Of a stretch of 64,000 bases of DNA, positions 5,335 to 45,856 are shown in pieces. How positions within the stretch are numbered: the first letter of the stretch is position 1; the number at the start of each line of letters is the position of its first letter. The position numbers and the translations under genes are program-made. This DNA comes from a candidate division FCPU426 bacterium (GTDB lineage: Bacteria; Oederibacteriota; JAAXVQ01; JAUVAV01), in the NCBI GenBank assembly GCA_040756875.1, contig JBFLYH010000002.1:1055078-1119077 (forward strand). The letters are read 5' to 3'. The notes below the pieces were generated by a model. It saw nothing but the letters and a program-made list of their open reading frames with translations. It searched no databases and was not told the origin of the DNA.

Positions 5335-5918
5335 TGCCCCGCGCCGTGTTTCTCGACCGGGACGGCGTGCTCAACCGTCTGGTATTCAATCCCGTGACGA
5401 AACGCCACGAGTCGCCGCACGTGCCGCAGGACTTCGCGCTCCTGCCCGGCGTGCTGGACGAGGTCGAACGCCTGCAGGCCGCGGGGTATATGCTCTTTCT
5501 GGTTTCCAACCAGCCCAGTTACGCGCTCGGCAAGACCACCATGGAGAACATCCGCGCCATCCACCAGTTGCTGGAAACGGCGTTCCAGGCGCGGGGGATC
5601 CGCTTTCAGGAGTATTACTACTGCTTCCACCATCCCGAGGGCGTGGTGCCGGATTACACGGCGGATTGCGAATGCCGCAAGCCCAAACCTTACTTCATTT
5701 TGAAAGCCAGGGACGAATTCGACCTGGACCTGGGGAAGTGCTGGCTGGTGGGCGACCAGGATTCGGACGTGCTCTGCGGCCGGGCGTCCGGCGTCCGCAC
5801 CATTCTGGTGGCCGAACCCGACTCGGCCGCGCGGCGCGGGCAAAGCGAACCTGATTTCCACGCCGCCACGCTTGGCCGGGCGGTGGACATCATCCTGGAA
5901 GACGGAGGCACGGCGTGA
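5334..5918 (+). CDS. gmhB: HAD-IIIA heptose-1,7-bisphosphate phosphatase
   Basis: AVFLDRDGVLN, VSNQ, CFHHP...CECRKPKP zinc motif and VGDQDSD. TGATG coupling with gmhA. Confidence 0.88.
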   Translation: MPRAVFLDRDGVLNRLVFNPVTKRHESPHVPQDFALLPGVLDEVERLQAAGYMLFLVSNQPSYALGKTTMENIRAIHQLLETAFQARGIRFQEYYYCFHHPEGVVPDYTADCECRKPKPYFILKARDEFDLDLGKCWLVGDQDSDVLCGRASGVRTILVAEPDSAARRGQSEPDFHAATLGRAVDIILEDGGTA

Positions 5919-6634
5919 TTCCGGACCTGCGGCGGCTCAAGATCAAATTGTTCGCGGACGGCGCGGACCTCAAGGCCATGGGTGAGGCCTACCGGTCCGG
6001 GTTGATCAGCGGCTTCACCACCAACCCGACCCTGATGCGCAAGGCCGGGGTGGCGGATTACGCCGCGTTCGCCCGCCAGGCCCTGGCCCTGATTCCGGAC
6101 CTGCCGATTTCGTTCGAGGTGTTTTCCGACGAGTTTGCCGACATGGAGCGCCAGGCCCGGTTGATCGCGGCCTGGGGCCCGAACGTCAACGTCAAGATTC
6201 CGGTCACGAATACGCGCGGCGAATTTTCCGGGCCCCTGCTGGAGCGGCTCACGGCCGAGGGCGTCAGCGTCAATGTCACGGCCTGCGCTTCGCTGGAGCA
6301 GGTGAAAGCCGTGGCGCCCCGGCTGGCCAAGCGCACGGCCAGCATCGTATCAGTGTTCGCCGGCCGGGTGGCGGATACAGGGCGCGATCCCATACCCCTG
6401 ATGAAGGCCGCCAAGCGCGTCCTCCGCTCCCGGCCCGCCTGCCGGCTGCTGTGGGCGAGCCCGCGGGAGGTCCTCAACATATTCCAGGCTGAAGCCAGCG
6501 GCTGCGACATCATCACGTTGACCCCGGACATCCAGAAAAAACTGGGGTTGATCGGGCGCGGCCTGGAGGACGTCTCTTTGGATACCGTGAAGATGTTCGA
6601 CCAGGACGCCAAAGCCGCAGGCTTTACGCTTTAA
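5915..6634 (+). CDS. tal: Transaldolase (short family)
   Basis: LFADGA, GFTTNPTL, ISFEV, VKIP (Schiff-base Lys), VNVT, SVFAGR and LLWASPR motifs. GTG start overlaps the upstream stop. Confidence 0.9.
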   Translation: MIPDLRRLKIKLFADGADLKAMGEAYRSGLISGFTTNPTLMRKAGVADYAAFARQALALIPDLPISFEVFSDEFADMERQARLIAAWGPNVNVKIPVTNTRGEFSGPLLERLTAEGVSVNVTACASLEQVKAVAPRLAKRTASIVSVFAGRVADTGRDPIPLMKAAKRVLRSRPACRLLWASPREVLNIFQAEASGCDIITLTPDIQKKLGLIGRGLEDVSLDTVKMFDQDAKAAGFTL

Positions 6635-6664
6635 AGAGAAACGTTTTTCATGGACCTCACGGAG

Positions 6665-6750
6665 GCGGTCATTGCGAGGACCAGAGGGACGAAGCAATCT
6701 GGACGGTCAAGAACGCGATTGCTTCACAAGAGAACGCTCGCAATGACTGC
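6665..6750. repeat. REP-like nested palindrome
   Basis: GTCATTGCGAG (6668-6678)/CTCGCAATGAC (6737-6747) enclosing GAAGCAATC (6691-6699)/GATTGCTTC (6717-6725). Confidence 0.75.
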
Positions 6751-21283: not shown

Positions 21284-22954
21284 ATGACGTTGCCCATGCC
21301 ACGGACATTTTGGACCCAGGTGGCCGCAGCCGCCTTGGCCGGAGGCCTCTTGGCCCTTTCCTTTCCCAACGGCCTTTGGCCGCGGCTGGGCCAGGCTCCA
21401 GGCTGGCTGGCTTGGGTGGCGTTGGTGCCTTTTCTGCTGGCATGGCGCGATGCCAACTGGCCCCGGTGCTTTGCGCTGGGCTGGCTGCTCGGATTCGTTT
21501 ATTTCTACACGATGATTTCCTGGCTGCCTCTCATCAACCGCGATACCAATGTTGATAACGCCATTGGCAGGATCATATTCGCTTTTTTAGGAGGCCTCTA
21601 CTTCGGCCTGTTCAGTTTTTCGGCCAAGGCGGTGACAGACCGTTTGCAGTGGCCTTCAGCGGTCGTCGTACCTTTGGCTTGGGTGGCATGGGAATATGTG
21701 AGGGGCCAAATCATTATTGGAGGCTGGCCCTGGGGCAGTCTGGGCCATACCCAGTACGGCACTCCGCTGGTCCGTCAAGTGGCGGCTGTTGCTGGCGTCA
21801 GCGGAGTCTCCTATTGGGTCATGGCCGCGAATGCTGTTTTGGCGAGCGGCTGGTCGAGGAATTGGGCCGAACCGCTGCGGTGTTCAGTCAAGGATGCATT
21901 CCGGCGTCCGGGGTTGGCCGCCATGGTTCTGTTGCTGGCAGCGGGCTGGCTTTATCTTCTGGCACGCTGCACAGTGGAAGCGAGGGCATTTGCCCGGCAA
22001 CCCGCCCCGCCGTTGCACCTGGCGCTCCTGCAGGGCAACCTCAATACGGACCAGCGCTGGGATCAAGCCTACAAGGAAAACGTCTTCGCCCGCATGGAAC
22101 CGCTGCATCGGCAGGCAGCGGCTACGCATCCGGACCTCGTCATTTGGGCGGAGTCCTGTTTTCCGGGCATCTTGGAATACGAACCGGAAAAGGCCTGGGA
22201 GGACCGGCTGCGGTCGTTGATCAGGGAAGCGGGCGTACCGACGCTTCTGACCAGCAATGAATATCAGCCGACGCATCTGCTCGAAGGCCCGCGCTTTCAT
22301 CACTACAACAGCGCCTTTCTGCTCGGCGCCCAAGGCGAGACCCTGGGGCGTTACCGCAAGATCAGGCTGGTGCCGGGCGGCGAATACATCCCCTGGGAAT
22401 GGATGAAGCGCTTTTTAAAGAGCGTAGTGCGCGAACCTATCCCTGTGGATTTCGAATCCGGCGAAGAATATGAACCGCTGCAGCTGGGCGGCCCAAACGG
22501 CACTTGGCGGTTTTCGCCGTTGATCTGTTATGAGGACCAGTTCGAGGAACTGGGATATCAGCTGGCCAAAAACGGCGCGCGGTTTTTCTGCTCTATGTCC
22601 AACGATGCCTGGGCAGGGCACTCGGCCATGAGCAGCCAACGCACGGCCATGGCGGTTTTTTTAGCCATCGAACACAGGGCGTATATGCCCAGGGCATCCA
22701 TGACCGGCCCAACGACGGTGATTGATCCCTGGGGTAAAATAAGCTCTGCTTTGCCTTTCTTCACATCTGGTATGAAAACCGCCACCATCCACCCCGCGGA
22801 CTTCACTACCTTTTTTTCCCGGTATGGCAATTTGATTCCCTTCATCATAACCATCGTGTTTGGGTTCCTGATGATCATCAGCTGTTTGCCCAGGCGATTG
22901 GGCGCAGGAAATTTACCCCGCGCGGAAAATTCTCACCACCAACGACCGGTTTGA
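21284..22954 (+). CDS. lnt: Apolipoprotein N-acyltransferase, paralogue 1
   Basis: N-terminal TM helices, GGWPWGSLGHTQY, LLQGN, nitrilase triad WAES / YRKIRLVPGGEY / LICYED, SNDAW and IDPWG. Confidence 0.9.
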   Translation: MTLPMPRTFWTQVAAAALAGGLLALSFPNGLWPRLGQAPGWLAWVALVPFLLAWRDANWPRCFALGWLLGFVYFYTMISWLPLINRDTNVDNAIGRIIFAFLGGLYFGLFSFSAKAVTDRLQWPSAVVVPLAWVAWEYVRGQIIIGGWPWGSLGHTQYGTPLVRQVAAVAGVSGVSYWVMAANAVLASGWSRNWAEPLRCSVKDAFRRPGLAAMVLLLAAGWLYLLARCTVEARAFARQPAPPLHLALLQGNLNTDQRWDQAYKENVFARMEPLHRQAAATHPDLVIWAESCFPGILEYEPEKAWEDRLRSLIREAGVPTLLTSNEYQPTHLLEGPRFHHYNSAFLLGAQGETLGRYRKIRLVPGGEYIPWEWMKRFLKSVVREPIPVDFESGEEYEPLQLGGPNGTWRFSPLICYEDQFEELGYQLAKNGARFFCSMSNDAWAGHSAMSSQRTAMAVFLAIEHRAYMPRASMTGPTTVIDPWGKISSALPFFTSGMKTATIHPADFTTFFSRYGNLIPFIITIVFGFLMIISCLPRRLGAGNLPRAENSHHQRPV

Positions 22955-29200: not shown

Positions 29201-32200
29201 GGCTGGCGGCTTCTGGAAAGGCACGCTGGCCCTACGGCCCGTGGGCGGCAACGAGGCGTTTGCGTTCAATGAATGGGGCGAAATGGACCGCCTCTACACT
29301 AAAAATGCGGACGGATCGTGGACCCTTTCCAAGGAGCGCAAATACACGCAGGATGCACAGGGGCGCTGGGTCGGCGCCATGATCGATGCGAACGTGGCCG
29401 GCCAGTTGAGCAAGGATGAATTGCGGAACCTGATTCTGGCCATGAATGCGGATCCCGCGGTGTTGGCGCAAAACCGCAGTTACCAGGATTACCTGAAGGA
29501 CCTGAAACTCACCCCCGGCACAGCTGAATACGATGCCAAATTGAAGGAACTGGCTTTGCCGCTCGGTCTTTCCGCCATCCAGCAGGCCCAATCGTACGTG
29601 AACCAACTGCTTTCGCAGGGCGCGACTGGATCGAAACTGGAGTCGGCTTACCGCACCCTGGCGTTGGCCGAGCAGAAGGTATATTCCCTGGATCAAACGA
29701 AGGTGAACTTCGCATCGCTGGTCGAGCATGCCCGTTTGAGCCAGGACGCGCCTCTAATGTTGAAAGCCGCGGATTACCAGTTGTCCCAGGGCGATAAATC
29801 CGGGGCGGTTGTCACGCTTCAAGCTGCGCTGACATCGCTGCGGAATTTGCCTCCGACGCCGCTGACGATGGACCAGGCCTTGCGGGGGCTGGAGCTGCTG
29901 CAACAAGCGGGGCAGACTGAGACTCAGGTCTATCAAACCACGCTGACGTTTGTCGAAAACCAGCTCAAAGTGTCTGCCTTGACGCCCCTGACCCTGTCCC
30001 AATCACTGCGGCTGAACGAGGTGGCGGGCAGTGCCGTGGTGTCGGACGAACGCCTTATGCAATTGCGGAACGCGGTGGAGTCCGTGGTCAACGACAACCA
30101 GGCGAAAATCAAGGCAGGCAGCAGCTATACGGTGCAGGGATTCGGTGTGATCAGCAAAAGTGCGACCGGCGACGTGACGGTGCAGACGCAGGTGTCCGAA
30201 GACACGGCGGCCTCGATCACCTTTAAGGCGGTGAAAGAGGAGCGGCCGTTTGAGCCGGCCGGGCGGTTGGAAATGGAGCAGGTAGTAGTGGTCGACAACC
30301 TGGGAGTGCTGCAGATGTTCGCCGCGCAGCCCGAGGGATTTGCCCTGACCACGGTCGGCTTGACAAAGACCGTTACCATCGGCAACAAAACCTTCACCAC
30401 CAGGATTCTCAGCGATATCAATAACACCACCGGCCAGGCTGCCGGTACGATCAAAGTGGACGACAAGATCTATTCCGTGCGGGTCAATCTGGAAACCGGG
30501 GACGTGCAGGTGAAGCTGGAAGCGGAAAAGCCCGCGGGCAAACTGGACTTGTCCGCCTGGAATCGTGCGCGCCTGACGTTTGTCAATGGCGAGGCGTATT
30601 TTACGATCAACGGAAAGACGGAAAAAGCACAGGTGATTAATCAGGTTACAGCCGAACAGCTGCAGCAACTGAATGTTCCGGCCAACCAGGCCAAGGTCAT
30701 TGCCGACCTGCTGAAGGGCCGGAGCGGATACCTGGCCTCGGACGGAACGATATTCGTCGGAACGCAGCAGGAAATTGAAGCGGGAAATTATTTTGTCGCA
30801 GGCCGCAACCAATTCGGCACCAATCAAAACGACCTGGGATATTTGGCGAAATTTGTGGATGGCAATTTGCAGCGCGTTGATTTGTCGGACGGGAAAATCA
30901 TCTCGGTTCTGAGCAAAGACCTGAGCCGATACACGGTGACGCAATACAGCGAGGACGGGAAACGGGTGGCGGTTTCGCTGTATGAAAAAAGTGCGCTGGT
31001 GGGGACCAAACTGATCCTGCGTGATATCAATAACGTCGCGCTTCTCTATGATGCCAAAGGCCAATTGACGCAGGCCAGCCGGGAGAGCCTGCGGCATCTC
31101 CAGGCCCAAGGGGTGCAGTTCAACGAGGTTCAGGGCGGCTTTACCCTGCGGTACAAGGACCAGGAGTCGGCGTTCACGGCGAACGGGCGGCCGCTGGCGA
31201 CCGGCAACAAGGAACAGGGGGCGGGCGAAGGCGGGAGCAAAGAAGGCACCTCGGAGCAGCAGAAGAGCGGGACAAGTTCGCAGCAGACGCTGGAATTCTT
31301 CGACCAGCAGGCAATAACCTTGAACATCGCCAGTTACAAGGATCCGGATGGCATCCGGATCAAGACCAACAACTTTGAGTATACCACGATCACGGTGCAG
31401 GCCTCGACCAACGGAGAAGTGACCAAGGTCGTGCTAAAAAGCACGGTTACGGCCCAGGTCACACAGCGCATTGTGTCGAATGACAGCCAAACCATGACCG
31501 AGACCGGGCGATTCCGGAACTCAGGCGAGCTGGAAAAGGGCACGCGGCATTTGGTGGCCTCCAAACTCACCCAGACGGACGATAAAACCGGCCAGACAAT
31601 AACGCGTACCAATGTGGATAGCTTGAGTGAGATAGAGGATGGCAAAGAGAAAAGCAATCGCATGACGTTTGAGCTGGAAGAACTCAGGAATCAGGCGGGT
31701 AATCTCATCCGCATGGTGGAACGCGGCGAGTATATCAGCAAGATGGTCGGCGGAAAACTCGAAACACATCTGGAAAACGGCCGCGTACAGGAATGGGGCA
31801 GCGGGACCATCAATGGCGTTCAATACACAAATTACCACACCACGACAAACATCGTAAACGGCGAGCAGAGACTAGAATCGATGACGTTCGCCCGCGCGGA
31901 AAGCATGGAAAACGGCGTCAAGCGCGTCATCACCAACGGACGGTACCAGGGATTCTACAACGAAGCCGCGAAAAAATGGGACGTCAAGCTGCAAAGCGGG
32001 CGGGTGGAGGAGTGGGGCGGCAGCCAAACGATGAATGGGACGACGTATACCAATTATCATACGGTGACGAACGTGGTGAACGGCAACCAGCGACTGCAAT
32101 CCATGTCGTTTGCGAGCGCCACGAGCATGGAAAACGGCGTCAAGCGCGTCATCACCAACGGGCTGTACCAGGGATTCTACAACGAGGCCGCGAAAAAATG

Positions 32201-35200
32201 GGATATCAAGCTGCAAAGCGGGCGGGTGGAGGAGTGGGGCGGCGAACAAACGATCAATGGAACTGTCTACAAGAATTATCATACCATCACGAACGTACTG
32301 AACGGCAACCAGCAGCTCCAATCCATGACATTTGCCAGCGCCACGAGCATGGAAAACGGCGTCAAACGCGTGATTACAAACGGCGAATATGTCGGTTTTA
32401 CGAATGCTGATACCAAGAAATGGGACGTCAGGCTGCAAAGCGGGCGGGTAGAGGAGTGGGGCGGCGAACAAACGATCAATGGGACTGTCTACAAGAATTA
32501 TCATACCATCACGAACGTACTGAACGGAAACCAGCAGCTCCAATCCATGACATTTGCCAGCGCCACGAGCATGGAAAACGGCATCAAACGCGTGATTACA
32601 AACGGCGAATATATCGGCTTCGAGAACGCCGACACTAAGAAATGGGACGTCAAGCTGCAAAGCGGGCGGGTGGAGGAGTGGGGCGGCAGCCAAACGATGA
32701 ATGGCGTTACGTACAAAGATTATCATACCATCACGAACGTGGTGAGTGGCGATCAGCAATTGCAATCTATGACCTTCGCCCGCGCCGAAAGCATGGAGAA
32801 CGGCGTCAAACGCGTGATCACGAATGGGGAATATAAAGGATTCTACAACCAGACTGATAAAAAATGGGATATCAGGCTGGAAAACGGGCTGGTAGATGAG
32901 TCGGTGGCGCAAAAGGTTGAAAATCAAACTGATCCGAAACTTGGGACACTCACCATCACCAATTCCGATGTCCATACCATCACCCGGATTGAAAGCGGAA
33001 AGGCCGTGGAAGTCACGACAACCATCGGCCACTCGGTATCCAAGGATTCGAGCGGAAGAGTCGTTACTGATGAAAAGGGCATCTCTAAAGTGCTGACCAA
33101 TCCGCAGTTCAACGAAAAGGGTGTGCTGATCAGCGGCACGCAAAAAATGACCGTCGAGGAACGCAAGGAATACAACGTTAAATTCGACGACCAAACCCAA
33201 CGTTATATTGTTGCCGACGATAAAGTGACAAAGAGCTATAAAGTTGAATCAACCGCTGAAATCGAACAAGGCCGCGTTATAAGCAATCGGACTGAGATTC
33301 AAAGGATGACCACGTTGAACGAAAGCGGGCGGGTAGTGGCTGAGGATTTCAACATCGTTCAATCGATGGCCATCTTGAAGACCTATACCAAAGGAGTATT
33401 CGGTTCGGATCGCGAAGTGGTGGTTAACATCACCGAGGGCAAATCCGGCAGCCAGGTCATCCTCAACGGTGACCGTGAGCATGCCATTGCCATGGGGGCA
33501 GGCGTCAAGGTCAGCGCGGATGGCGACAAGATCATCGTGCAGGATGCGCGCGGGGTCTTGCGGGAATTCACTGCCGGTGGCAAGGAGACGACAGGCTGGT
33601 TCCAGGCCCGGGCGAATGACTGGAATGCCTATTCGGCCAAGATCGATGCGTTGGTTAATAAAGTAGAAACCGCCTGGAACGAAGGCAGGTATGGCATGGC
33701 GATTCTGCATGCCGGAAATTACTTGCTGTCCGGGACCTTGGACGCCCTGGTCTATGTTCTGCAGACCGCCTGGGCGGTAGTGGAAGGCGCGGTCGTGCTC
33801 TCGGTTAATGTGACGACGGCACCGTTTACAGGACTTTATACCATAGGCAGCAACCTGATTAACGGACGCGATTGGAATGAGGGTTTGTGGGATGCCATGA
33901 CCCGGCCTGGCCAGGCGGTATTGGACGGCTTCAAAGGCGCGCTTAATTTCGTCTTCAGCCCGCTGGATAAGGCATTGAATTGGGCGTCGGAAAAAGTGCT
34001 GGGCTGGGCTGAGGCGCTTACTGACACGGCGGAATGGGCCGCGGATCATAATGATATAATTGGGGCCGTGATATTGTCAGCCGCAGCCATCGTCCTTAAA
34101 GTGGTTGGAGAAAACCTGCCGACCTTGGTCATCATCGCGGTCAGCTTTATTCCGGTGGTCGGCGGGGCCATTGCGACCATCATGCTGGCCCGCGATGCAC
34201 TCACCCGGGGCTTGGGCAGCATGTTCGAATCTTTCTTCATCGAGCCCTTCATTAAGATCGGCACCGGCATCTACCAGTTGGCTACCATCTCGACCAATAA
34301 AACCGAGGTCTCGGTTACTCGACAGATCATCAATGCCACTTCACTGATTGGAGGGGGCATCGTCGGTCTGGCGCTGGCCAAGATGATGTTAAAAGGCGCG
34401 ATCGAGCAATTCAAGGCAGCGCGTGGCGAGATATCGTTGGCTCAAGTAAAAGGATATCTGCAGGAATTGGCGCAAGCCGGAGAACTGCATAAGGTTATGG
34501 GAAAGACGCTGGGCGAAATCGTCAAAGATGCCGGGATGAAGATGAAAGGCGAGCCAGCGTGGGCCAAATTCAAGTTCGATGATCTGACAGTTCCCCAGCT
34601 GCGGGGCGAAACGCTTGGCAATCTGATGTCCAAGCCCGGCGGCGCCGAGCTCCTGAAGAGTCTCTTCACCTATGGTGCAGAAGGCGGCGGATTCCGTATG
34701 AATGACCTTGCCCTGCCCAAAGCCAAGGAAATCGAAGTAGGCCGGGTTCAGAAGGCTATTGAGTTCCTATCTGAAAAAGCGGCGGAGAAAGTGGGCCTGG
34801 AGCTTCCGAAACAAACCCGGGTGATTGATCAACCTCTGGCTGAAGCGGTGAGGCCGGCTGATGTAGGTCTTTCCCGTCTGACCGGCATGGGGTCCGGATT
34901 GGCGACCTTTGCCGTGGAGACGATCAAGAGCCAGTTCCAGATGATGGCGCATGCCTTTGGTACCATACGCTCCATTATGACCACCACCTTCAAGGCCGGG
35001 TTGAACTTGGCCAGCAACCTGGTGGTGGAAAAAGCGGGCCTCGGATATACGGCCGGTTATCAAAAGGCCAGTGAAACAGTGCGGTCAGCGGTCAAGGATT
35101 TCGCCAAGACGAGCACGGGAGAATTCCTGCAAAAGTTCAGTTCCGAAGGCCTCTCTAATACGTTCAGCCGCGTTGCGGATTCGGTCCGGTCCGTGTCCAA

Positions 35201-38200: not shown

Positions 38201-41200
38201 ATTGCTTGCCGCAAATCTCCAGCCCGGGATATTGGCAAATGCGCTAGGCATAGCGGATGCATCTGCCTTGACCGGCTTGGTTGGGAAAGTTATGGAAAGC
38301 AATAAAACACTTTCCAAAACGGAAGTGGAAAACATTATTAAAGATAGTTTCCCGGAATTAATGGGCCGAAGCGCTGAAATAGCGGAGTTAGTAAGTAAAC
38401 AGATGAAGTTCAGCTTCCCCACGATGGATGCCCTGCTGACCCAGGCCAACATTGCCAAGCAGCGCACAGAAATAGAAAAGCAGCTCGTTAAATCTGAAGC
38501 GCTTAAAGAAACCGGCATTGAAATAAACGGACAAACTCTGAAAATCATCACTGAATTGATCGTGAGTTTCCAGCTGGATATAAATTACCGCAATTTTGCT
38601 CCCGAGTTGCCTATGCTGAGGTTCTTAGTGCGTCAAACAGAACTGCATTATATGAATATGGAATTGCAAACGAAGAATCCGGCAATGAAAGTGGTTATCG
38701 GCGAGGCATTGCAACTGGCCATGGGCGGCGGCAAATCCTGTTCGCCCTTGGCTATGAAAATCGCAATGGATCTTTTCGCCCGAAACCACTCGGGAGTAGA
38801 GCCTCCGGCTATGTTATATATGACCGCGAACCCGACGTTGGTTAAGCAAATATTAGGCGAACATACTTTCATTAAGATGAGAAATGAAGGAAGGTTAGTA
38901 GAGCTTTCCAAGGAAGGAACGGAGGCTGAATTCAAAAAAGTTGTGGAAAGCGGATTCGAAAAAGGAAAGATGTACGTAACAGATAACGAAACGCTGAAAC
39001 AAATCGTGCTTGATATGAGGAGTGAAGGCAAAACCGACCAGCAAATCGCCAAACTGTTGCAAAAAGACCTTGGCTCCATCGGCTGGGACGAATTCCACGC
39101 GGCTTTCCACACCACGGATACCATCATCGGCGCCTCGGGCATTGCACCGCTTTTAAGTCAGAAAGCCTTGAGCCAGCTCATGCCCATGACGATGAATCTG
39201 CTTAAAAATTACGCCGCGGTGCGGGAGTGGTTCAAGAGCAACGAACTGGTCCGGCAAGGTAAAGAAAGCAAGCTGTTTGAAAATGTTGAGCAGGGGATGG
39301 GTAAAGAAGTCCGCGGCCAATTCCAGTTTACGCAGGAAGCGAAAGCGGAAATATTAGAACGGACCGGTCTGGATTACCGCAAAGCCAGCGACGCTTTCAT
39401 TCTGGACAAAATTGCACAAACCTTGTCCATGAAGAACGGCAGGGAATATTCGGGCCGATACAATGAAATCACTGGCCGAACCGAGTACGGCACCATGGAA
39501 GGTGGCGTAGGCAAACCGAACACTATTTTCGGCGACCAGATGCTGGCAACGTTTACCAATGCCGAGATCTTTCTCGAAGCCACCGGGCTAAAAGCCGAGC
39601 AGATCAGCCGCGAAGGATTTGCCGACACTTATCGTCCTTTCATGGAGTCCATGATCGAAGCTTTTGTGCATACGACGACCGAACGAGTGACCATGATGGA
39701 AGCCATGCACCTAGTCGGTTCGCAGAACATCGTAGGATTCTCCGGGACGTTCGAAGGCATCCAGAATGTATTGCAAATGTGGGGTAAACAGCTGGTGCGT
39801 ATCAACACCGAACCAGTGATTGACCTCATGCAAGTGGTTGGGAACGAAGCGTACTTCAGAGTGAAGATCGGGACAGATGTGCTGACCCTGGCCCGCGACA
39901 TGCGGACCGGCGAAGTCAAGCTGACCCTGGGGCAGGAAGCCATTCAGGCCAATAAAGCCCTGGTGAATGACATTGTTTCGCTGATGGGCAAAAGGCTGGA
40001 AGTAAAGGGACTCGAGGCCGGGCAGACAATCAAAGTGGATGGCGTCCAGCGGAGCGTGAGCAGGGAGTGGCTCAATCGCGAAGGCGGACTGGATATTAAG
40101 AAATTGCAGGCGCGTTTTGGAGAAGGCGTGATTGTGCGCGAATTTACCGGCGGCCGCCTCGTTTTGGATAACGTGTCCGTGAAAGTCACCGAAAAAATGG
40201 TCGATAAACCCATCCAGGGTGCGGAGAAATTCATCCGCCAACAGATCGTGACCGGTGACTACAATGCGGCGCTCGGGGAATTGATGGGTGAAGTCAAGAC
40301 GGCGTTGGGCCGGCAGGGCCGGACGGCGGAAATTAAAGACATCACCCGGGAAAGCGTAAGACGGTATCTCATGGAAAAAAATATCCAGGTGCCGCGTGAG
40401 ACCGGTGCGGATATCGTTGAAGCCTTATTTAAAAACGGAGAATTGGCTACAAAGGTGTTGAAGGAAATGCTGCTACACCCAGGCGAAGGCAAAGTCCAAT
40501 TGATACGGATCGACGGCATTGCACCGGAATTATGGACATATGCCATGAAAGGCTTGGAATCACTAATTAAAACACCCGAGGGAGCTATGCAGGAGCGCGT
40601 GATTTTCGCCCCCAAGATCGGTGAAGGCTTGAATACCGTGGCGATCAAGGGCGATTTCATGAAGCGCATGGGTGCTGCCCTACACCAACTGGATATGCGC
40701 CCCCTGGATGTTTATCGTCAGACCATGAAGCGTTTGAACGTATATGAAGCCCGGGAGAACGGTCTGGACTTCAAACGCGCCCAGGGCCTGACCGGTATGT
40801 CCCTGGACTTCAACCGGCTGAAGAACGTCACCGGCAAGGAATACGGGGAGATGGAAGCGTTCGTCCAGGAAGTCAAGACGACGTTGGCCGGCGAAACCAG
40901 TCTGGGGGTTAAGGTGGAAAAGGGCGAATTGGCGGTGAACGATGCGGTTTCAGGCCGCAATGCCGAGCTGATCAAACGGTTCAATGACCTTCTGATCGGC
41001 GAAGGAAAAGTGGAGGAATTCCAGCAGGAAAGTGGAAAAACGGAGCTGGTTAATAAAAATTACAGCAGCCGGACTGAAGCGGGCGTGGCGAAAAGCATTC
41101 TGACCGAAGTGGATATGCAAAAAACCCGCGCGGCCCAGCAGACCCAAGCTGGAATCCAGTCGGAGACGACAGTGGATGTGGGCGTGGCCAAGGCCTCGCC

Positions 41201-44108
41201 CGAATACATGTCCAAGTTGGCCCGGAAAGTAGAGAGTAATCTGCCAGAAATCATGCGCAAACTCCAGGGCATCAATGATCTGGAAGCCCGTCTCAATGGT
41301 AGCAGCGAAGCACAGGGCAGGATATTGAAGGATGCGGCCTTGCCGCCTTCAGCCCTGCAAACGTATGGTTCCTGGACCAGGCTGGGCTGGATCGAGAACT
41401 TCGTGGACAGCCGCATCAGCGCGCTGAAGTTATCCAGTTCCAAGATTCAACTGGTTAACGAGTACGCTAAAGCCTGGCAGGATCCGCAGTGGCAGCAACA
41501 GCATGCCGAGCAGGTGGCTGCGCTGCAAAGCCAGTACGGGTCGGATTGGTTTGAGCCGGCCATGGCGGATAAGTTTGGAGCGGATTGGAAACTATATGAG
41601 AAACTGGGGACGGCGTTAGCCATTCAAACTCAAGGCTTGCCGTTGATCGGACGGATACCCTTGGTCGGCAATGGTATGAGCAATTTAGTGGCGGCGCTGC
41701 TGACGAATAGGCAGATTAAAAACCTGCCCAGGCAGGAATACCAGGCCGTATTACAAAATGTGGCCAGTGTCAGCGAGAAACTGCCTGAATTGGCAGCTGA
41801 CCCCGAAAATACCACGCTAACCTATCAAGGCCGGACCATGGATTTGCAGGGTGCAGAGCAGTACGTGCGCAGTCAAGTGAACGCTGCCAGCTATTATACG
41901 GCGGTCAACGGATTCAAGGTGGCAGATACGGTTTTGACTACGCCGATCAAACCTCAGGATAAAGTGCAACCCACGCTAGTGCAGGCAGCGGCAGAGACGG
42001 CCTTGCAGCAGCGACAGTTGCCTGTCAGGATGGCGGAATGGGTCAAGGGTCAGTGGAGTGACCTCTTACGCGGCCTGCAGCAGTCCAAATTTGTCATACC
42101 ATTCTTTAAAATTCAGGATGGTTGGATTGTACCTACAAAAGTGACTACGTTGTTGGTCGGCGCCGCAATGGTAGGGCTGCTTAGCATGACCGGCTTGCCC
42201 ATTCTCGGATTAGCGGGCGGACTTCTGCTTATGCCCATGTTGCAGCCGCTTTTGCAGCAGGCAACCAGGTTCCTGCCTGGGGCACAGGCCCAGGTTGGCC
42301 GCAAAGAAGCGTCGTTGATGGTACGCTTGGTTGCTCCAGTGGTTCTTTCCTTGTTGGTGGGCACGTTGCTGGGTTCGCCTGCCACGGGTGTGTGCGGTGC
42401 GATTTCGGCGGCTACCGGGACATTGACTGAAGGCACGTTGCGTACTTTGTCGGAGTCCAAATTCCGGGCTACAGTGAACCGCATCAGCGATTCCCGGCTG
42501 GGAGCCGGGGAGATGAAGGCGGATTCCCTGAGATTGGTGGAACGTTTCAAAGCCGAGGCCAAAGGAAAAGAGCAAGATGGCAAAGCGGTATATGGCATTC
42601 TGAAAGGACTGCTGTCCAAACCGGAATTTGGCGATATAACCTTGGAGGCGAGCGACTCCGCCCAATACTACGGCTATATGCATCTCGTCGCTGCGGTTTT
42701 GAGTCTGGTGCCGCGGGCCACGGAGAGCCTGGACCGGGTGGAACTGGGGCAGAACACGTCCAAGTCGGCGGCTGCCGAGCGAACCGGGGTTAGGGTAGAC
42801 CAGCAGTCCATAAAATTCCTTAACCAACAATTCTCGGATATTTTGATAACCCAGACATTGCTGGCGGTCAAGGGGCGGCTGTTCAGTGATGCACAGTCGT
42901 ACTCCTTGAACGAAATGCTGCGGCAGCACCGGCTGTTCAAGGAATTCGGGAGCAACGCGCTGGTGGAATTCATGCGGCAGTATCTGGTGGACGGTGAAAA
43001 TATGAAAGCCTTGGCCAGCCAGGATGAAACCCTGCGCGGTGTGTATCAACAGGTAAAAGAGCGATTGGGCCGCGAATATGGGGAAAGGGATCTGCGGGAT
43101 CTAACCGAGGCGGCCGGGGAGCTGGAGAATACCGCCTTTGGCCTTATGAAAGGGAAGGCGGCGGATATCCGGCGCGAATCTGATCCGGAACAACGTCGCG
43201 GGCTGGAAGTGGCGTTCGAGGCGACTTTCGGGATCAATTATGTTGATTATTTGAAACTGCAGAAATCGCCCTGGCAGCAGCAGTTATTGGGTTGGATTGC
43301 GGGCAAAGACCGTTTACAACGGACCGAGCAGCCGGTAATGACCGTGCGCAGCATGGCTCAGCAGTTGGTCGGTCTGGGCATGGTAGTGGCCGTGGCCGGC
43401 GGGTTGTTGTTCGGTCTGTTGAGCGGAGCTTTGCCAGTCCTCGTCGCGTCAGCTGGATTGCTGATCGCTGTAACCGGCGCGGCGGTGTGGCTGCAGGCCA
43501 GGTCTATTGCCTTTGGCCTGAACCCTGCGGCAGCGGTGGAAGAGTTGCTGGCAAGCACGCCGTTCATTTCGCGCCACCCGCGGATGGAGGCGGATGCGCA
43601 GCGGATCGCGCAACTGGCCGGAAAGGAAGAATTCGAACAGCGGAAAGTGTTCGCGGCGCAATACGGGATCAGTCACGAGACCTACCAGAAAATCGCACTA
43701 GCGACATTGATATCCGATCCGTATTTCACGAAAGCGGTGAATGGGTTGAGGATCGCGGGCACGGAGATGGTGTCGGAAACCATGCGCAATCGTGCCATCC
43801 GGGCCACCTTGGAGCACCTGCTGGCCGTGGCCGAATCCGATGCCAGCATGGAAACGAAGCTGGATTTAACCAGGGATTTGGCCCAAGTGCTTGGATTCCT
43901 TGGTTTCAACATCAGCTTGACGTACAAGAAGTATGCGGATGAACTGGCCGTGACCCTGACGCCGGAGGTAGTGCCGCGGACCCTGACGCAGGACTACAAG
44001 CTTGGACGGATCATCAAACGGCTGGAAGGGCTGGGCATCGGGTTGAAATTGGATGTGGCGCCGTTGCAGAAGCAGCCGAAGCTCAAGACTACGGGCAGCG
44101 CAGCTTAA
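23277..44108 (+). CDS. Giant multidomain membrane/exported protein (~6,943 aa) with a SecA-like ATPase region
   Basis: Uninterrupted 20.8-kb ORF. GAGG RBS favours the ATG at 23277 over the track start 23268. N-terminal hydrophobic segment, acidic region, hydrophobic clusters, 74-aa repeats, coiled coils, QLAMGGGKS / DEFH / GFSGT motifs, C-terminal TM segments. Confidence 0.9.
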   Translation: MKTITQFWSQAAILSRQLWRVARERHRKVISLVLAMIFVFTMTGMDTILAYGFDNNRHENYDQQNDLLPPANPLEQAQPDAFISVNAPTDKKADVADTRLNVLKAEYGDLLSTVSLQTVAEKTLAGVSVDTALKWVAEVVAPKGEQPAGTQPEEETTEQPAVDPSLLADVATTSQGPLSLSLNLDGLSGKGRLSDETDLAQLPIPAEMLPKEITPSEQPETVEPAAVAQETQPSAQPLEAGLPKVDESAKPEQPVEGGQLPEIQVVEQPKDQGGETKVTETEETEKKNNAETSLADLTKQFLALLGMNDKLKEDTAAKTEETKLPEETTETGSKETVLPEDAQAKKDGTETLAEGEEKPKTEVEQPAAEEKPEGEEKVAKEEKEEDGEQPAEDKDNEGDEKRAELPDQVLRLLGLGEKDKETEKDTEVEGPDSLEDFFALLGDEERKEDGETSSKEVDLDVDALLDELNAQGIEPPKEIDEPASMLADLVDRPQTEEKPEETLLPETEQPVENTDTVLTDDTEIALVGPEAGMVEEEKEPKETEGTAPTENKPEETDGVEAASIHALPDVTQLRQEALLVNILGTDATQQPETNLAAEVSDAFKRGASMILGPDANLPESLSPATTQLEPAGVSEATLPATVGTIPQVFIEQISANLTAADEQGAAATQAGPEDIRGTRSSALADLLNVSEDESRVPTAPGVIINQQSTDRTPDYWAGGSAWDIARIYGHPEQPEQENPDPECTDFLGLAIVMFIFQGPKAMMDFFQNPSLETFMEMFMILTDPVYYIYKIVDALINFSWDTMQEFGEFANSPFGKLFMFIISVVLTIFTCGSAAPILIALIILIELIQTFVPLPKWLDIALSIVKAALGGWASAIKDTFKQAITEVVKNVIQAISDLIKTLTKDVLKAIIKAVLKETIVQILQEVLPEDLLFYMPLISIMADWLAAGLTEMFMGEDGKGFTDGFVKAFKQSFNITPETFSTFTGFVKFMTSPAMRAGLAFLIQSLFVNSGEENGAKAAQDRRAGAIWGAMASGFLGWVDASVSTRIPLTFMQQVGMFLFNFVRPVVAKTVSTIVSQYAPSDSNGGAKWGDNQKYFVANTWGTIAERMVPGYQVDQSGARWSWLPTEIASVFSSDSMSSGNASTAAGSMGDSKGIQGASAGQAGFLNGVQAAEQLGPANSEVQQAEMPAKVEAQSPISTDSHAVKEESEITESESPFNEMEQQLNLGQEIQNPNQNAPQQQQQNLEQQRSASGLPKQTEEKKAEAPSRSEQQIQQQQPKQQPEKQPEKLETPYEQPQYNQQESLPDNNNNEREELNSPSLDNSNRDNEMEVPQDPMQEVKDLKLPGAHMPQKGELKQGDELERLDEIKTPKGSTVEKTASEALNDGNGQGDGNGQGGGNGAGQGDNGVEAYQGVTQNMQMNLSQHREQLETMKQTGELPAKFAPAENSTVRTATLASDSIPTDSALGQVVENLTREGSLPYGGDFNLKVETFQNQAGNQIMAVSSIDASTGQTQLLALTEKIGNEHITTTFRENTEGPGAVANVYAGDQKGDALMANDFAIPDLDVKRGLGELTKGSGLSGREQAKAGGERLLEGDQLEETGETSRGSDRNRPGENKDQDAMAAGAFKGGKGSGPGGENSGKAEGWNQGSDATLYKGENGGLEVKGSMDALKQVMDASGQVDLSKLSGRQNADGTMTYEAPGVQITATPAALNEATAGGSSLDMSRLQPVAGEQLPATLTNNDGLDIRGSPQALDKLKDANGQLDLKQFSAQTMKDGTVKLQGPEGVEISGTPDALAKAAGKENQLDLGKFQPKSSEAQAGKTTVTEPPKNFEAPPAEQNDKAVGEGTSLISSNKEIDPSRRDVKMSEQEGPRPATPDKPQEITSGQVEVPKKYNLFQTAMAKLFTLGSWEPGTTMATTYTFEVDGRTVSMQFVPERTGSGNAVGSMDVKGSDGETYKVTLGSNGEVTGVMQYVVAGGFWKGTLALRPVGGNEAFAFNEWGEMDRLYTKNADGSWTLSKERKYTQDAQGRWVGAMIDANVAGQLSKDELRNLILAMNADPAVLAQNRSYQDYLKDLKLTPGTAEYDAKLKELALPLGLSAIQQAQSYVNQLLSQGATGSKLESAYRTLALAEQKVYSLDQTKVNFASLVEHARLSQDAPLMLKAADYQLSQGDKSGAVVTLQAALTSLRNLPPTPLTMDQALRGLELLQQAGQTETQVYQTTLTFVENQLKVSALTPLTLSQSLRLNEVAGSAVVSDERLMQLRNAVESVVNDNQAKIKAGSSYTVQGFGVISKSATGDVTVQTQVSEDTAASITFKAVKEERPFEPAGRLEMEQVVVVDNLGVLQMFAAQPEGFALTTVGLTKTVTIGNKTFTTRILSDINNTTGQAAGTIKVDDKIYSVRVNLETGDVQVKLEAEKPAGKLDLSAWNRARLTFVNGEAYFTINGKTEKAQVINQVTAEQLQQLNVPANQAKVIADLLKGRSGYLASDGTIFVGTQQEIEAGNYFVAGRNQFGTNQNDLGYLAKFVDGNLQRVDLSDGKIISVLSKDLSRYTVTQYSEDGKRVAVSLYEKSALVGTKLILRDINNVALLYDAKGQLTQASRESLRHLQAQGVQFNEVQGGFTLRYKDQESAFTANGRPLATGNKEQGAGEGGSKEGTSEQQKSGTSSQQTLEFFDQQAITLNIASYKDPDGIRIKTNNFEYTTITVQASTNGEVTKVVLKSTVTAQVTQRIVSNDSQTMTETGRFRNSGELEKGTRHLVASKLTQTDDKTGQTITRTNVDSLSEIEDGKEKSNRMTFELEELRNQAGNLIRMVERGEYISKMVGGKLETHLENGRVQEWGSGTINGVQYTNYHTTTNIVNGEQRLESMTFARAESMENGVKRVITNGRYQGFYNEAAKKWDVKLQSGRVEEWGGSQTMNGTTYTNYHTVTNVVNGNQRLQSMSFASATSMENGVKRVITNGLYQGFYNEAAKKWDIKLQSGRVEEWGGEQTINGTVYKNYHTITNVLNGNQQLQSMTFASATSMENGVKRVITNGEYVGFTNADTKKWDVRLQSGRVEEWGGEQTINGTVYKNYHTITNVLNGNQQLQSMTFASATSMENGIKRVITNGEYIGFENADTKKWDVKLQSGRVEEWGGSQTMNGVTYKDYHTITNVVSGDQQLQSMTFARAESMENGVKRVITNGEYKGFYNQTDKKWDIRLENGLVDESVAQKVENQTDPKLGTLTITNSDVHTITRIESGKAVEVTTTIGHSVSKDSSGRVVTDEKGISKVLTNPQFNEKGVLISGTQKMTVEERKEYNVKFDDQTQRYIVADDKVTKSYKVESTAEIEQGRVISNRTEIQRMTTLNESGRVVAEDFNIVQSMAILKTYTKGVFGSDREVVVNITEGKSGSQVILNGDREHAIAMGAGVKVSADGDKIIVQDARGVLREFTAGGKETTGWFQARANDWNAYSAKIDALVNKVETAWNEGRYGMAILHAGNYLLSGTLDALVYVLQTAWAVVEGAVVLSVNVTTAPFTGLYTIGSNLINGRDWNEGLWDAMTRPGQAVLDGFKGALNFVFSPLDKALNWASEKVLGWAEALTDTAEWAADHNDIIGAVILSAAAIVLKVVGENLPTLVIIAVSFIPVVGGAIATIMLARDALTRGLGSMFESFFIEPFIKIGTGIYQLATISTNKTEVSVTRQIINATSLIGGGIVGLALAKMMLKGAIEQFKAARGEISLAQVKGYLQELAQAGELHKVMGKTLGEIVKDAGMKMKGEPAWAKFKFDDLTVPQLRGETLGNLMSKPGGAELLKSLFTYGAEGGGFRMNDLALPKAKEIEVGRVQKAIEFLSEKAAEKVGLELPKQTRVIDQPLAEAVRPADVGLSRLTGMGSGLATFAVETIKSQFQMMAHAFGTIRSIMTTTFKAGLNLASNLVVEKAGLGYTAGYQKASETVRSAVKDFAKTSTGEFLQKFSSEGLSNTFSRVADSVRSVSNQLANSMASAFSRLTGSSVRLASNFNQPLGEGTYARKGMSERPGAGVDANGVKTEAGQQRSAMQDTQAMLKGAREELSTARSNKASAEVIGRLEANVRTIEAAAKNLETALKIKDLEVSRSTEGKAPETEQTALERQQLSLAKDAIEGRNTAESIQKEIAKTEADISKLQAEAKTEAGKTEIESLTGKLKGLQEQQKQAEQQMKNAEQQLSLTDQIHQAQQDTGRLKGELDEARSQRDAGSPEESSANAASVRRLEQEISKTQADEKVGREQQKVLDLQTELSKAHARGDLADYAQIAKDLTAAEQGLHRSLTEQSNAQKQFNSSVAKESQMTVSGKLEAMAQASGMSRAVLETKVEQVVDKIGDHTRSRAVKSALVDLMSGNSRNPGEAMKVLEQNSLGLKACMEALVANGLEAQAMNFLDQVGKTKGATTAERNAAAESFGLQPRGLEVELNRQLGAQLKAENPLGLEGGSRRGMTREERSQLLKDVAKSLTLEQYNRLMQAQLNGENITNLLKSMRTEGAGKSLNEVLKGDVAGKTQAFAEQLSKTLSEAGVEMNASRRQMVNEIAEKLTLESYRQLRSELLTSPDPVKSLETALRSEESVMPTKSGQNAAAERLLGGENNRLESSYSPEFAETLQAFRGELAKSNSVDEALRTKENVAKALEKLTNEVGQREVQKLTSSLNEAQVKNLLKAETVEMAEARLKAMMQESAVQQAGTEGAVNSLQHEVNTQMSRVEGRLERLQQVEAAKQKLHDAKQDYNNAKTFADKVAAEKAVQNAQQNLRVTELLAERNPAVGNALAEAWARWQAERGLASADQVQLRIQVEQAISSITDPALKQSVKMELERFNKLQESIEKDQAALGRASRFGSSKGQIEARMLENIKQRQNLLAELNKSGHADRLLESMELQGMTSRKLLEPAAGQADALGATIRDILGNLRAELLQPKALSEALGVDVTKLCLELGRTSEIFNENVVRETIEKSFPELASKSGAIIDAMSKQLLAANLQPGILANALGIADASALTGLVGKVMESNKTLSKTEVENIIKDSFPELMGRSAEIAELVSKQMKFSFPTMDALLTQANIAKQRTEIEKQLVKSEALKETGIEINGQTLKIITELIVSFQLDINYRNFAPELPMLRFLVRQTELHYMNMELQTKNPAMKVVIGEALQLAMGGGKSCSPLAMKIAMDLFARNHSGVEPPAMLYMTANPTLVKQILGEHTFIKMRNEGRLVELSKEGTEAEFKKVVESGFEKGKMYVTDNETLKQIVLDMRSEGKTDQQIAKLLQKDLGSIGWDEFHAAFHTTDTIIGASGIAPLLSQKALSQLMPMTMNLLKNYAAVREWFKSNELVRQGKESKLFENVEQGMGKEVRGQFQFTQEAKAEILERTGLDYRKASDAFILDKIAQTLSMKNGREYSGRYNEITGRTEYGTMEGGVGKPNTIFGDQMLATFTNAEIFLEATGLKAEQISREGFADTYRPFMESMIEAFVHTTTERVTMMEAMHLVGSQNIVGFSGTFEGIQNVLQMWGKQLVRINTEPVIDLMQVVGNEAYFRVKIGTDVLTLARDMRTGEVKLTLGQEAIQANKALVNDIVSLMGKRLEVKGLEAGQTIKVDGVQRSVSREWLNREGGLDIKKLQARFGEGVIVREFTGGRLVLDNVSVKVTEKMVDKPIQGAEKFIRQQIVTGDYNAALGELMGEVKTALGRQGRTAEIKDITRESVRRYLMEKNIQVPRETGADIVEALFKNGELATKVLKEMLLHPGEGKVQLIRIDGIAPELWTYAMKGLESLIKTPEGAMQERVIFAPKIGEGLNTVAIKGDFMKRMGAALHQLDMRPLDVYRQTMKRLNVYEARENGLDFKRAQGLTGMSLDFNRLKNVTGKEYGEMEAFVQEVKTTLAGETSLGVKVEKGELAVNDAVSGRNAELIKRFNDLLIGEGKVEEFQQESGKTELVNKNYSSRTEAGVAKSILTEVDMQKTRAAQQTQAGIQSETTVDVGVAKASPEYMSKLARKVESNLPEIMRKLQGINDLEARLNGSSEAQGRILKDAALPPSALQTYGSWTRLGWIENFVDSRISALKLSSSKIQLVNEYAKAWQDPQWQQQHAEQVAALQSQYGSDWFEPAMADKFGADWKLYEKLGTALAIQTQGLPLIGRIPLVGNGMSNLVAALLTNRQIKNLPRQEYQAVLQNVASVSEKLPELAADPENTTLTYQGRTMDLQGAEQYVRSQVNAASYYTAVNGFKVADTVLTTPIKPQDKVQPTLVQAAAETALQQRQLPVRMAEWVKGQWSDLLRGLQQSKFVIPFFKIQDGWIVPTKVTTLLVGAAMVGLLSMTGLPILGLAGGLLLMPMLQPLLQQATRFLPGAQAQVGRKEASLMVRLVAPVVLSLLVGTLLGSPATGVCGAISAATGTLTEGTLRTLSESKFRATVNRISDSRLGAGEMKADSLRLVERFKAEAKGKEQDGKAVYGILKGLLSKPEFGDITLEASDSAQYYGYMHLVAAVLSLVPRATESLDRVELGQNTSKSAAAERTGVRVDQQSIKFLNQQFSDILITQTLLAVKGRLFSDAQSYSLNEMLRQHRLFKEFGSNALVEFMRQYLVDGENMKALASQDETLRGVYQQVKERLGREYGERDLRDLTEAAGELENTAFGLMKGKAADIRRESDPEQRRGLEVAFEATFGINYVDYLKLQKSPWQQQLLGWIAGKDRLQRTEQPVMTVRSMAQQLVGLGMVVAVAGGLLFGLLSGALPVLVASAGLLIAVTGAAVWLQARSIAFGLNPAAAVEELLASTPFISRHPRMEADAQRIAQLAGKEEFEQRKVFAAQYGISHETYQKIALATLISDPYFTKAVNGLRIAGTEMVSETMRNRAIRATLEHLLAVAESDASMETKLDLTRDLAQVLGFLGFNISLTYKKYADELAVTLTPEVVPRTLTQDYKLGRIIKRLEGLGIGLKLDVAPLQKQPKLKTTGSAA
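31779..32885 (+). repeat. Five tandem 222-bp (74-aa) coding repeats in giant 1
   Basis: Units start at 31779 (219 bp), 31998, 32220, 32442 and 32664: GRVEEWGG...YHT.TN..NG.Q.LQSM.FA.A.SMENGVKRVITNG.Y.GF.N...KKWD..LQS. Confidence 0.95.
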
Positions 44109-44173: not shown

Positions 44174-45856
44174 TTAACGTGCCGGTGGAATGAACCGTGC
44201 GGGGATAAATGAAGCAGCGCAAAGCAGGAAAAATAAAACCGTAAACCCGAACGGAATCAAATTGCCGAAACGGGTGAAAAAAGTCCTGAATTTGGCGGGA
44301 TAGATGGTTTCCCATTTAACTGCAGGTTCGAAGAAGGGCAGTGCCGGCCCAATGTGGCCCCAGGGATCGATCACGACCGTGGGGCCGGTCATATCAGCTT
44401 TGGCGATATAAGCTCGGTGCTCTACCGCCAGAAAGACCGACATGGCATTGTGCTGATAACTCATTTCCGAACGGCCTGACCAGCTGTTGTTGGCCACGCT
44501 GAGAAAGAAATCCGCGCCGGCTTTTGCCAGTTGATATCCCAATTCCTCGAACATATCTTCGTAACAAATGAGTATTGAAAAGCCCCATTTTCCCAACTCG
44601 AAAACTGTGGTGTCATCGCCGGGTTCGAAATCCACGGGAATGGGTTGCTGAACCACGGTTTGCAGGTAACGCTTGAGAAATTCGTAGGGAATGTATTCCC
44701 CAAAAGGCACTAAATGAAGTTTTCGGTAGCGCCCCAATGTTTGGCCTTGGCCGCCCAGATAAAAGGCACTGTTATAGTGGTGCCAGGACAGGGGTTTATC
44801 AAGGTCTTGTTCGCGCTCGTACTCATTGCTGGTCAGAACCGTGGGAATGCCCGCTTCGCTGACCAGCTCGCGCAAGCGTTGTTCCCATTCCCGCAGGGGA
44901 GGATATTCCATTATGCCAGGGAAACAGGATTCGGCCCAAACGATTAGCTCGGGTTTTTTGACTGTCGCTCCCAGGTGCAAAGTACGCATACGGTCCAAGG
45001 CTGCCGTCCGATAGGCTCGATCCCAGCGTTGCCGGGTGTTGATATTCCCCTGCAGTAATGCCAATGAAATCTGACCGCGCGGGCTGCGGGCAAACCCCAC
45101 GGTTTCGATGAAGGCAATTATCAATACGCTGATCCACAGAAGCGTTAGAATCGCGACCACGCCCGTCACGACCGGCCTGCGTCGCCAGACCGACCACCAT
45201 TCTTCGAGAAGACGGGAAGAAGATGCCGGAAGGGCGGATTTTGGCCGGCGCCAGCGATTCCAGACGGCCCGAAGTCCGTCCAGAAGAAAAATATTGCCTA
45301 AGATGACGAGAAACGAAATACCGCCAACTCCGACGACAGTGGAAAGCTGTCGAATGGGCCAATTCGCATACTGGGTGGCGCCCAGGCTGCCCCACGGCCA
45401 GCCGCCCGTCAGAATATGACCGCGCAAATATTCCCAAGCCACGAATGAAAGCGGTAACAGGATCGAATCCGGCCAGTGTAAACGATGCTTGATTAAACGG
45501 GCGGAGAGCCCAAAAAGCCCAAAATAGATTCCTCCGCAAACAGCGAAAAAGAGCCAAGCCACGGCGTTATCAATGTTGGTATTGCGTCCGACGAGACGGA
45601 CCCAGGTCAAGGTGCCGGTAAAATATAAAAAGCCCATCAGCCAGGCATATCCAAAAGTGCCGAAAGTAGTACACCTGCGCCAAATATATATATAAGGAAT
45701 GAAACTGACCCACGCCAAGGCACTGTGCCATGGGGAATAACCGGCATAGAGGAAGTTAGGAAAGGAAAGTGCCTGCAAGAGTCCGGCGCTGGCAGCCAGC
45801 CAGATCCCATGCACAGGTTTCCAGGTTGGTTGGGATAGGGTAGTGGATTGGGTCAT
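44174..45856 (-). CDS. lnt: Apolipoprotein N-acyltransferase, paralogue 2
   Basis: GGWPWGSLGATQY, LLQGN, triad WAES / YRKLHLVPFGEY / LICYED and IDPWG; colinear with paralogue 1. Confidence 0.9.
   Translation of the reverse strand: MTQSTTLSQPTWKPVHGIWLAASAGLLQALSFPNFLYAGYSPWHSALAWVSFIPYIYIWRRCTTFGTFGYAWLMGFLYFTGTLTWVRLVGRNTNIDNAVAWLFFAVCGGIYFGLFGLSARLIKHRLHWPDSILLPLSFVAWEYLRGHILTGGWPWGSLGATQYANWPIRQLSTVVGVGGISFLVILGNIFLLDGLRAVWNRWRRPKSALPASSSRLLEEWWSVWRRRPVVTGVVAILTLLWISVLIIAFIETVGFARSPRGQISLALLQGNINTRQRWDRAYRTAALDRMRTLHLGATVKKPELIVWAESCFPGIMEYPPLREWEQRLRELVSEAGIPTVLTSNEYEREQDLDKPLSWHHYNSAFYLGGQGQTLGRYRKLHLVPFGEYIPYEFLKRYLQTVVQQPIPVDFEPGDDTTVFELGKWGFSILICYEDMFEELGYQLAKAGADFFLSVANNSWSGRSEMSYQHNAMSVFLAVEHRAYIAKADMTGPTVVIDPWGHIGPALPFFEPAVKWETIYPAKFRTFFTRFGNLIPFGFTVLFFLLCAASFIPARFIPPAR

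Follow-up and report, generated by a model that had tools for sequence, protein, structure and literature searches.

The window analyzed here, a 64,000-nucleotide (nt) stretch of contig JBFLYH010000002.1 from a candidate division FCPU426 bacterium (GenBank assembly GCA_040756875.1), contains a giant open reading frame (ORF; 23268-44108, forward strand) of 6,946 codons, which, in the ORF list and its translation, has a GTG start, an ATG at codon 4 and no internal stop over 20.8 kb. Toward its C-terminus lies a block of about 800 amino acids (aa) that in predicted structures probably has the architecture of SecA, namely two RecA-like nucleotide-binding domains (NBD1 and NBD2) with a large insertion in the first (Table 1). 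An initial annotation made from the sequence had reported nine motifs in SecA order within a ~6,940-aa protein, and all nine strings are present in that order in this one ORF, although two of the positions given were 3 nt off (WDEFH starts at 39084 rather than 39087 and VGFSGT at 39732 rather than 39735). The superfamily 2 (SF2) motifs I, Ia, II, III, V and VI occur in sequence along the predicted tandem RecA-like domains, and the nucleotide-binding residues are intact, viz., the Walker A lysine (K5156), the Walker B aspartate and glutamate within a DExH signature (D5274/E5275) and the arginine of motif VI (R5822). Single-letter residue numbers used below for the domain are those of the giant minus 5060. 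The giant also holds a second copy of the string GREY, at aa 6601.

Table 1. Features of the giant ORF and its surroundings (window positions in nt, with strand in parentheses where given)
Feature	Window position	aa of giant	Domain residues	Basis or remark
Apolipoprotein N-acyltransferase (Lnt) gene	21284-22954 (+)			LNT_N + CN_hydrolase
74-aa tandem repeat	31902-32901			period 222 nt, 4.5 copies, 83% matches
Short Pfam DUF1508 match	about 32538-32606	~3091-3113		E 7.7e-6, 26.1 bits
Whole SecA-like motor block (N-terminal helices, NBD1, insertion, NBD2)	38520-40907 (+)	~5085-5880		family alignments, models, fold searches
First part of RecA-like domain 1 (NBD1-like), with Walker A, YMTANPTL, YVTDNE, WDEFH	38580-39140 (+)			
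QLAMGGGKS, Walker A	38712-38738 (+)	5149	Q89-S97	
YMTANPTL	38817-38840 (+)	5184	Y124-L131	
YVTDNETL	38973 (+); YVTDNE 38973-38990	5236	Y176-E181	
WDEFH, Walker B/DExH	39084-39098 (+)	5273	W213-H217	
Insertion (~175 aa) between motifs II and III at the position of the preprotein cross-linking domain (PPXD) of SecA; conserved NGREY...YGT.E.GVGK.NTI.GD	39141-39662 (+)			spacing, structural alignments
GREY and EITGR		5391 and 5400		string match
Return to domain 1, with VGFSGT	39663-39815 (+)			conservation; strands at 385-390 and 404-406 of the N-half model
VGFSGT, motif III-like	39732-39749 (+)	5489	V429-T434	
RecA-like domain 2 (NBD2-like), with IGEGLN and QTMKR	39816-40892 (+)			
Lineage-specific insertion within RecA-like domain 2	about 40005-40217 (+)			
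IGEGLN, motif V-like	40617-40634 (+)	5784	I724-N729	
QTMKR, motif VI-like	40719-40733 (+)	5818	Q758-R762	
C-terminal segment shared with paralogous giants	44040-44105			by eye
Second Lnt gene	44174-45856 (-)			LNT_N + CN_hydrolase
Giants 2 and 3	46383->64000 (+)			C2:1101430-1119828, C2:1120118-1134622

Nowhere is the giant better conserved than in the ATPase block, whose identities to the relatives P0002, P0003 and P0006 are, respectively, 0.74, 0.49 and 0.33, versus 0.36, 0.28 and 0.27 over aa 1-5084. Across the 11 family members aligned in A1, G93, G95 and K96 of Walker A, T126, L131, Y176, E181, the D214, E215 and H217 of the DExH signature, G433 and T434 are invariant, G725, E726, G727, N729, Q758 and R762 reach a conservation of at least 90%, and H408 and the stretch T410-E418 are likewise conserved. 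The Walker A lysine, the DExH glutamate and the motif VI arginine are conserved in the main group of the family. In a divergent subgroup (L046, L047 and L054, from genomes G054 and G049), Walker A reads GKE or GKQ rather than GKS/T and motif III is AT or GT; these copies may lack activity or be wired differently.

Among 1.84 billion representative proteins, just 12 matched at E<=0.001, each either a giant (2,035-7,658 aa) or a partial protein (295-1,441 aa), and a word-indexed search recovered six homologs of 5,703-7,680 aa; the homologous giants are collinear with the window giant along their full length. The motifs are kept in about 20 relatives, each in a giant or contig-truncated frame. 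Using the A1 profile, the domain was found in 11 genomes out of the phylum's 99, all from a single order: that of the window itself, eight of the ten others in its family and two of four in a sister family, as against none of the remaining 84, with the domain-bearing frames being 2,034-7,831 aa long or fragments at contig ends. Besides the copy in the window, the window's genome (3.22 Mb, seven contigs) has fragments where C3 ends and where C5 begins, and one relative (P0007, identical to L038) carries the NCBI label 'candidate division FCPU426'. A single-protein search of genome contigs gave 41 pattern matches with none confirmed; the A1 search of metagenome contigs gave 118 with one confirmed locus, which is identical to L039 and added no alignment depth. 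Separately, we observed by eye that the paralogous giants P0015 and P0016 (C3 end and C5 start) share with the window giant an extreme C-terminus of the form ...YKLGR...LEGLG...KQPKLK.TGSA followed by the stop, which could be a sorting or processing signal.

Structure prediction yielded a tandem RecA-like SF2 fold for the block. The model of the full block (840 aa, from 11 sequences) has a mean predicted local distance difference test score (pLDDT) of 64.7, the P-loop and Walker B being the very sites where confidence is low, and that of its N-terminal half (501 aa, from an alignment of 19 sequences, A2) has a pLDDT of 77.2. With the full model, the single Foldseek match at E<=1e-3 is SecA (3jv2_B), and SecA or SecA2 occupies nine of the first 10 rows; on re-inspection of the matches to this model, SecA or SecA2 fills each of the first 11 rows. 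With the N-half model, nine matches reached E<=1e-3, comprising eight SecA chains (best 1tf2, 1.5e-5) and the helicase DinG (6fwr_A). For both models, the best Foldseek match is a SecA.

In these models, the RecA core by itself does not separate SecA from helicases, and the discrimination comes from what lies beyond it. The helicases align over 136-190 residues, corresponding to the RecA core, whereas SecA chains align over 274-327 residues including the insertion; for the N-half model, the figures are 296-316 for SecA chains versus at most 190 for helicases. As modeled, the extra ~120-140 aligned residues stem from the insertion between motifs II and III, at the place of the SecA PPXD domain, and the insertion is predicted to form a clamp with NBD2. 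The insertion together with domain 2 also aligns with SecY-bound SecA: 3dl8_A over 327 residues at 5.2 Å, 3din_A over 287 at 4.2 Å, 6itc_A over 274 at 4.5 Å and 5eul_A over 275 at 4.4 Å. In the ESM Atlas, the best match scored 0.91 with 181 of 256 features shared, and the ten best named matches are all SecA_DEAD, a result that by the tool's own warning is a lead and not proof.

The separation of motifs II and III in DEAD-box helicases is about 30 aa. In the window domain it is 219 aa (E215-T434), and in the ordinary SecA of the same genome it is 164 aa (E216-G380). Several shorter spacings agree with those of that SecA: five residues from the tyrosine to the glutamate of Y..NE and five from T126 to L131 in both, and 17 versus 18 from the Walker B aspartate to the SG glycine. 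The initial annotation had paired the more divergent IGEGLN and QTMKR with AGRGTD and QLRGR of SecA, and this pairing fits the distances from the second glycine of GxG to the glutamine (31) and to the arginine (35), which are the same in both proteins.

Against the assignment to SecA stands a consistent lack of signal in sequence and profile comparisons. Five pieces of the giant were scanned with Pfam, and the piece covering the domain (38268-44105) matched no family there at E<=1; none of the 19 family members matched SecA_DEAD or any other SecA model at E<=10. None of the SecA family hidden Markov models (HMMs), i.e., PF07517, SecA_PP_bind (PF01043) or P-loop_SecA (PF21090), recognizes the domain above its curated cut-off, and a six-frame PF07517 search of the whole genome returned the housekeeping SecA and RecG (the latter a weak match at C1:1086794, which we rejected as a SecA) with no match to the domain. 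Searches of PDB sequences with the single sequence (phmmer) and the family profile recovered nothing relevant, the rows being at chance level (TniQ, E 1.7; a PHD finger, E 0.02). Profile-profile comparison did not establish homology to canonical SecA: hhalign of A2 against 21 SecA sequences of the phylum (A3) gave a probability of 0.11, and 0.15 in a permissive local rerun. Against a Pfam-positive family of SecA-like giants from the same order (A5, see below), it gave E 0.011 and a probability of 3.7%, with only the stretch between Walker A and motif Ia in register, and local hmmsearch --max in both directions found nothing beyond weak Walker A matches to this family. Further, the Walker B is DExH as in helicases and not the DEVD of SecA; no scaffold or wing was detected after NBD2 (the Pfam scan of 38268-44105 gave no SecA_SW); the models were built from about 19 sequences, with the strand preceding the P-loop modeled as a low-confidence helix; and a rough hydropathy count, with five strong or eight total transmembrane (TM)-like segments ahead of the block, cannot place it on the cytoplasmic side. 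The region after the domain (aa ~5870-6290) had no usable match in the ESM Atlas. The proposal of a SecA-like SF2 ATPase is supported at the level of predicted fold, best and longest structural match and Atlas neighbors, but the profile check against SecA_DEAD that accompanied it came out negative.

These observations have to be weighed against other readings of the block. The most serious is that it is a generic SF2 helicase-like ATPase of the DinG/XPD type with a lineage-specific insertion in domain 1, having a nucleic-acid or complex-remodeling role, in which case the likeness to SecA would stem from the RecA core common to both and from AlphaFold modeling on shallow alignments. The presence of DinG among the nine Foldseek matches, the DExH signature, a weak Pfam DEAD match (E 0.017) in one of the 19 members against none for SecA_DEAD, and the failure of hhalign to tie the family to SecA would all fit such an ATPase. 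Against it stand the alignment lengths, as DinG/XPD helicases cover ~181-190 residues that are all core, the first rank of SecA in both Foldseek and the ESM Atlas, and motif spacings that follow SecA. Moreover, the family alignment A4 has no visible Fe-S cysteine cluster of the DinG/XPD kind, and the domain forms part of a multi-TM giant in which Pfam finds no nucleic-acid-binding or other DNA-related domains. On balance, we regard a helicase-like identity as rather unlikely.

A decayed, catalytically dead RecA-like module retained for a structural or scaffolding role in the giant appears more improbable still. While the GKE/GKQ versions of Walker A in the divergent subgroup and the lack in IGEGLN of the arginine found in the AGRGTD of SecA are what such decay might produce, the window protein belongs to the main group, where GxGK[ST] in Walker A, DE in Walker B, GT in motif III and the glutamine and arginine of motif VI either do not vary or reach a conservation of at least 90%, and no part of the giant is as well conserved as this block. 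That the motifs are chance short strings in a non-coding or mis-assembled stretch has a negligible probability: the contigs of this genome do break within paralogous giants (C3 end, C5 start), but the long stop-free frame, the collinear full-length homologs and the family-wide conservation of the motifs contradict it. We marginally favor, as the full explanation, a divergent SecA-type motor that would have a role in translocation.

The resemblance of the block to SecA and SecA2 encompasses the tandem NBDs, the large domain between motifs II and III, the motif order with several spacings, ~90 residues of helices ahead of Walker A, the top rank and greatest length of the structural matches and the nearest clusters in the ESM Atlas. 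It differs from them in lacking detectable sequence or profile similarity, in its DExH (versus DEVD) and its GEG (versus GRG) in motif V, in an extra beta-meander and insertions in NBD2, and in that no scaffold, wing or zinc-binding tail was detected. In addition, SecA is a soluble protein of about 880-940 aa, whereas this domain is embedded in a 6,946-aa multi-TM protein. The window's genome has one ordinary SecA (an 889-aa open frame) and one SecY.

SecA-like motors in giant proteins are already known. Divergent SecA_DEAD/PP_bind domains without scaffold and wing were described in multi-TM giants of Omnitrophota and Actinobacteriota, and, for those of Omnitrophota, adjacent TM regions were proposed as a membrane anchor together with self-export (West-Roberts et al., 2023, 10.1101/2023.11.21.568195); an architecture cluster with PF07517 in giant proteins was also reported (Nielsen and Lui, 2026, 10.64898/2026.06.07.730766). 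Like the former proteins, the window giant combines a SecA-like motor with many TM segments, and its genome likewise encodes a normal SecA apart from it. However, their domains are detected by Pfam, in contrast to none of the 19 members of the window family, and the hosts in these preprints are Omnitrophota and Actinobacteriota, whereas the window comes from a phylum represented by 99 species genomes. In the literature searched, we found no description of such a domain in FCPU426 or of a version invisible to Pfam, though the supplements of the two preprints may list domain calls for other phyla.

A Pfam-detectable counterpart also occurs in the same order. A 13,678-aa frame of genome G019 (C1:35076-76109, reverse strand) bears, at about aa 3540-4250, a SecA-like motor scoring 46.9 bits with SecA_DEAD, 31.1 with P-loop_SecA and, weakly, 20.7 with PP_bind, and this genome belongs to the same family as that of the window, with relatives in 1,773-11,265-aa frames of five more genomes of the order (loci of the set: L036, L063 and L093-L096). 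No copy of this Pfam-positive domain was found in the window's genome. The G019 giant and the window giant show no BLAST match at E<=1e-3, and phmmer of the window domain against the G019 giant found none either.

A rough hydropathy scan of the window giant indicated ~12 TM-like hydrophobic segments (aa 35-53, 817-855, 934-952, 3493-3708, 6295-6368 and 6700-6742). The ATPase block is flanked by the clusters at aa 3493-3708 and 6295-6742, and because it lies between two hydrophobic-helix clusters of the same polypeptide, it is probably positioned at the cytoplasmic face of the membrane. We propose that aa ~5085-5880 constitute a very divergent SecA-type ATPase, comprised of the RecA-like NBD1, a ~175-aa clamp-like insertion and the RecA-like NBD2, which would be tethered to the membrane at its cytoplasmic face. 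Its likeliest job would be the ATP-driven pushing of a polypeptide through a membrane channel, and the substrate could be the giant's own non-cytoplasmic segments or the two neighboring giants; the housekeeping SecA would have no part in this task. In line with the proposal of West-Roberts et al. for Omnitrophota, we infer an export function for the motor; ATPase activity, a cytoplasmic location, a polypeptide substrate and self-export are likewise presumed. A more far-reaching version, which we advance tentatively and hold to be doubtful, is that these proteins represent a previously unrecognized SecA-derived family, invisible to Pfam and HMMs and confined to the giants of one order in a small candidate phylum, in which the giant's own TM helices replace the scaffold and wing, and which would act as an export engine in cis, independently of the housekeeping SecA.

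Several other features were observed in and around the giant. Its tandem repeat has the protein form ...SMENGVKRVITNG...GRVEEWGG..., the DUF1508 match is barely above the cut-off, and no lipobox cysteine was seen by eye in the translated N-terminus. The two Lnt genes flanking the giant are paralogous, and the genome has three LNT_N matches in all. The giant is the first of three tandem giant frames of 6,963, 6,133 and at least 4,835 aa, measured from stop to stop, the last of which runs off the contig; giant 2 has an RHS-repeat match near its start, and the ATPase profile gave no match in giant 2 or giant 3. In the window's genome (G000), 32 frames measure 1,800 aa or more from stop to stop, with 13 of them above 4,000 aa and the largest 12,551 aa; by the sum of the listed lengths, the frames account for ~13% of its 3.2 Mb, and the small contigs C4, C5 and C6 consist almost wholly of fragments of giant genes. 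The G+C content drops from 0.60-0.67 in the housekeeping part of the window (1-22000) to 0.47-0.59 across the giants (22001-64000), where the AT skew is strongly positive.

How bacteria insert proteins of many thousand residues into the membrane, or export them across it, is not yet understood. For the Omnitrophota giants, a SecA-like motor forming part of the cargo has so far been proposed from domain annotation only. As giants with a Pfam-detectable SecA-like domain occur in the same order as the window family, the two versions can be compared, and the block, with its compact size (about 800 aa), strong conservation and easily mutated catalytic residues, lends itself to an initial biochemical test of self-export. 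The presence of the window family in another phylum, with its link to SecA visible only through structure prediction and language-model features, suggests that the motor-in-giant arrangement may be wider than Pfam-based surveys detect.
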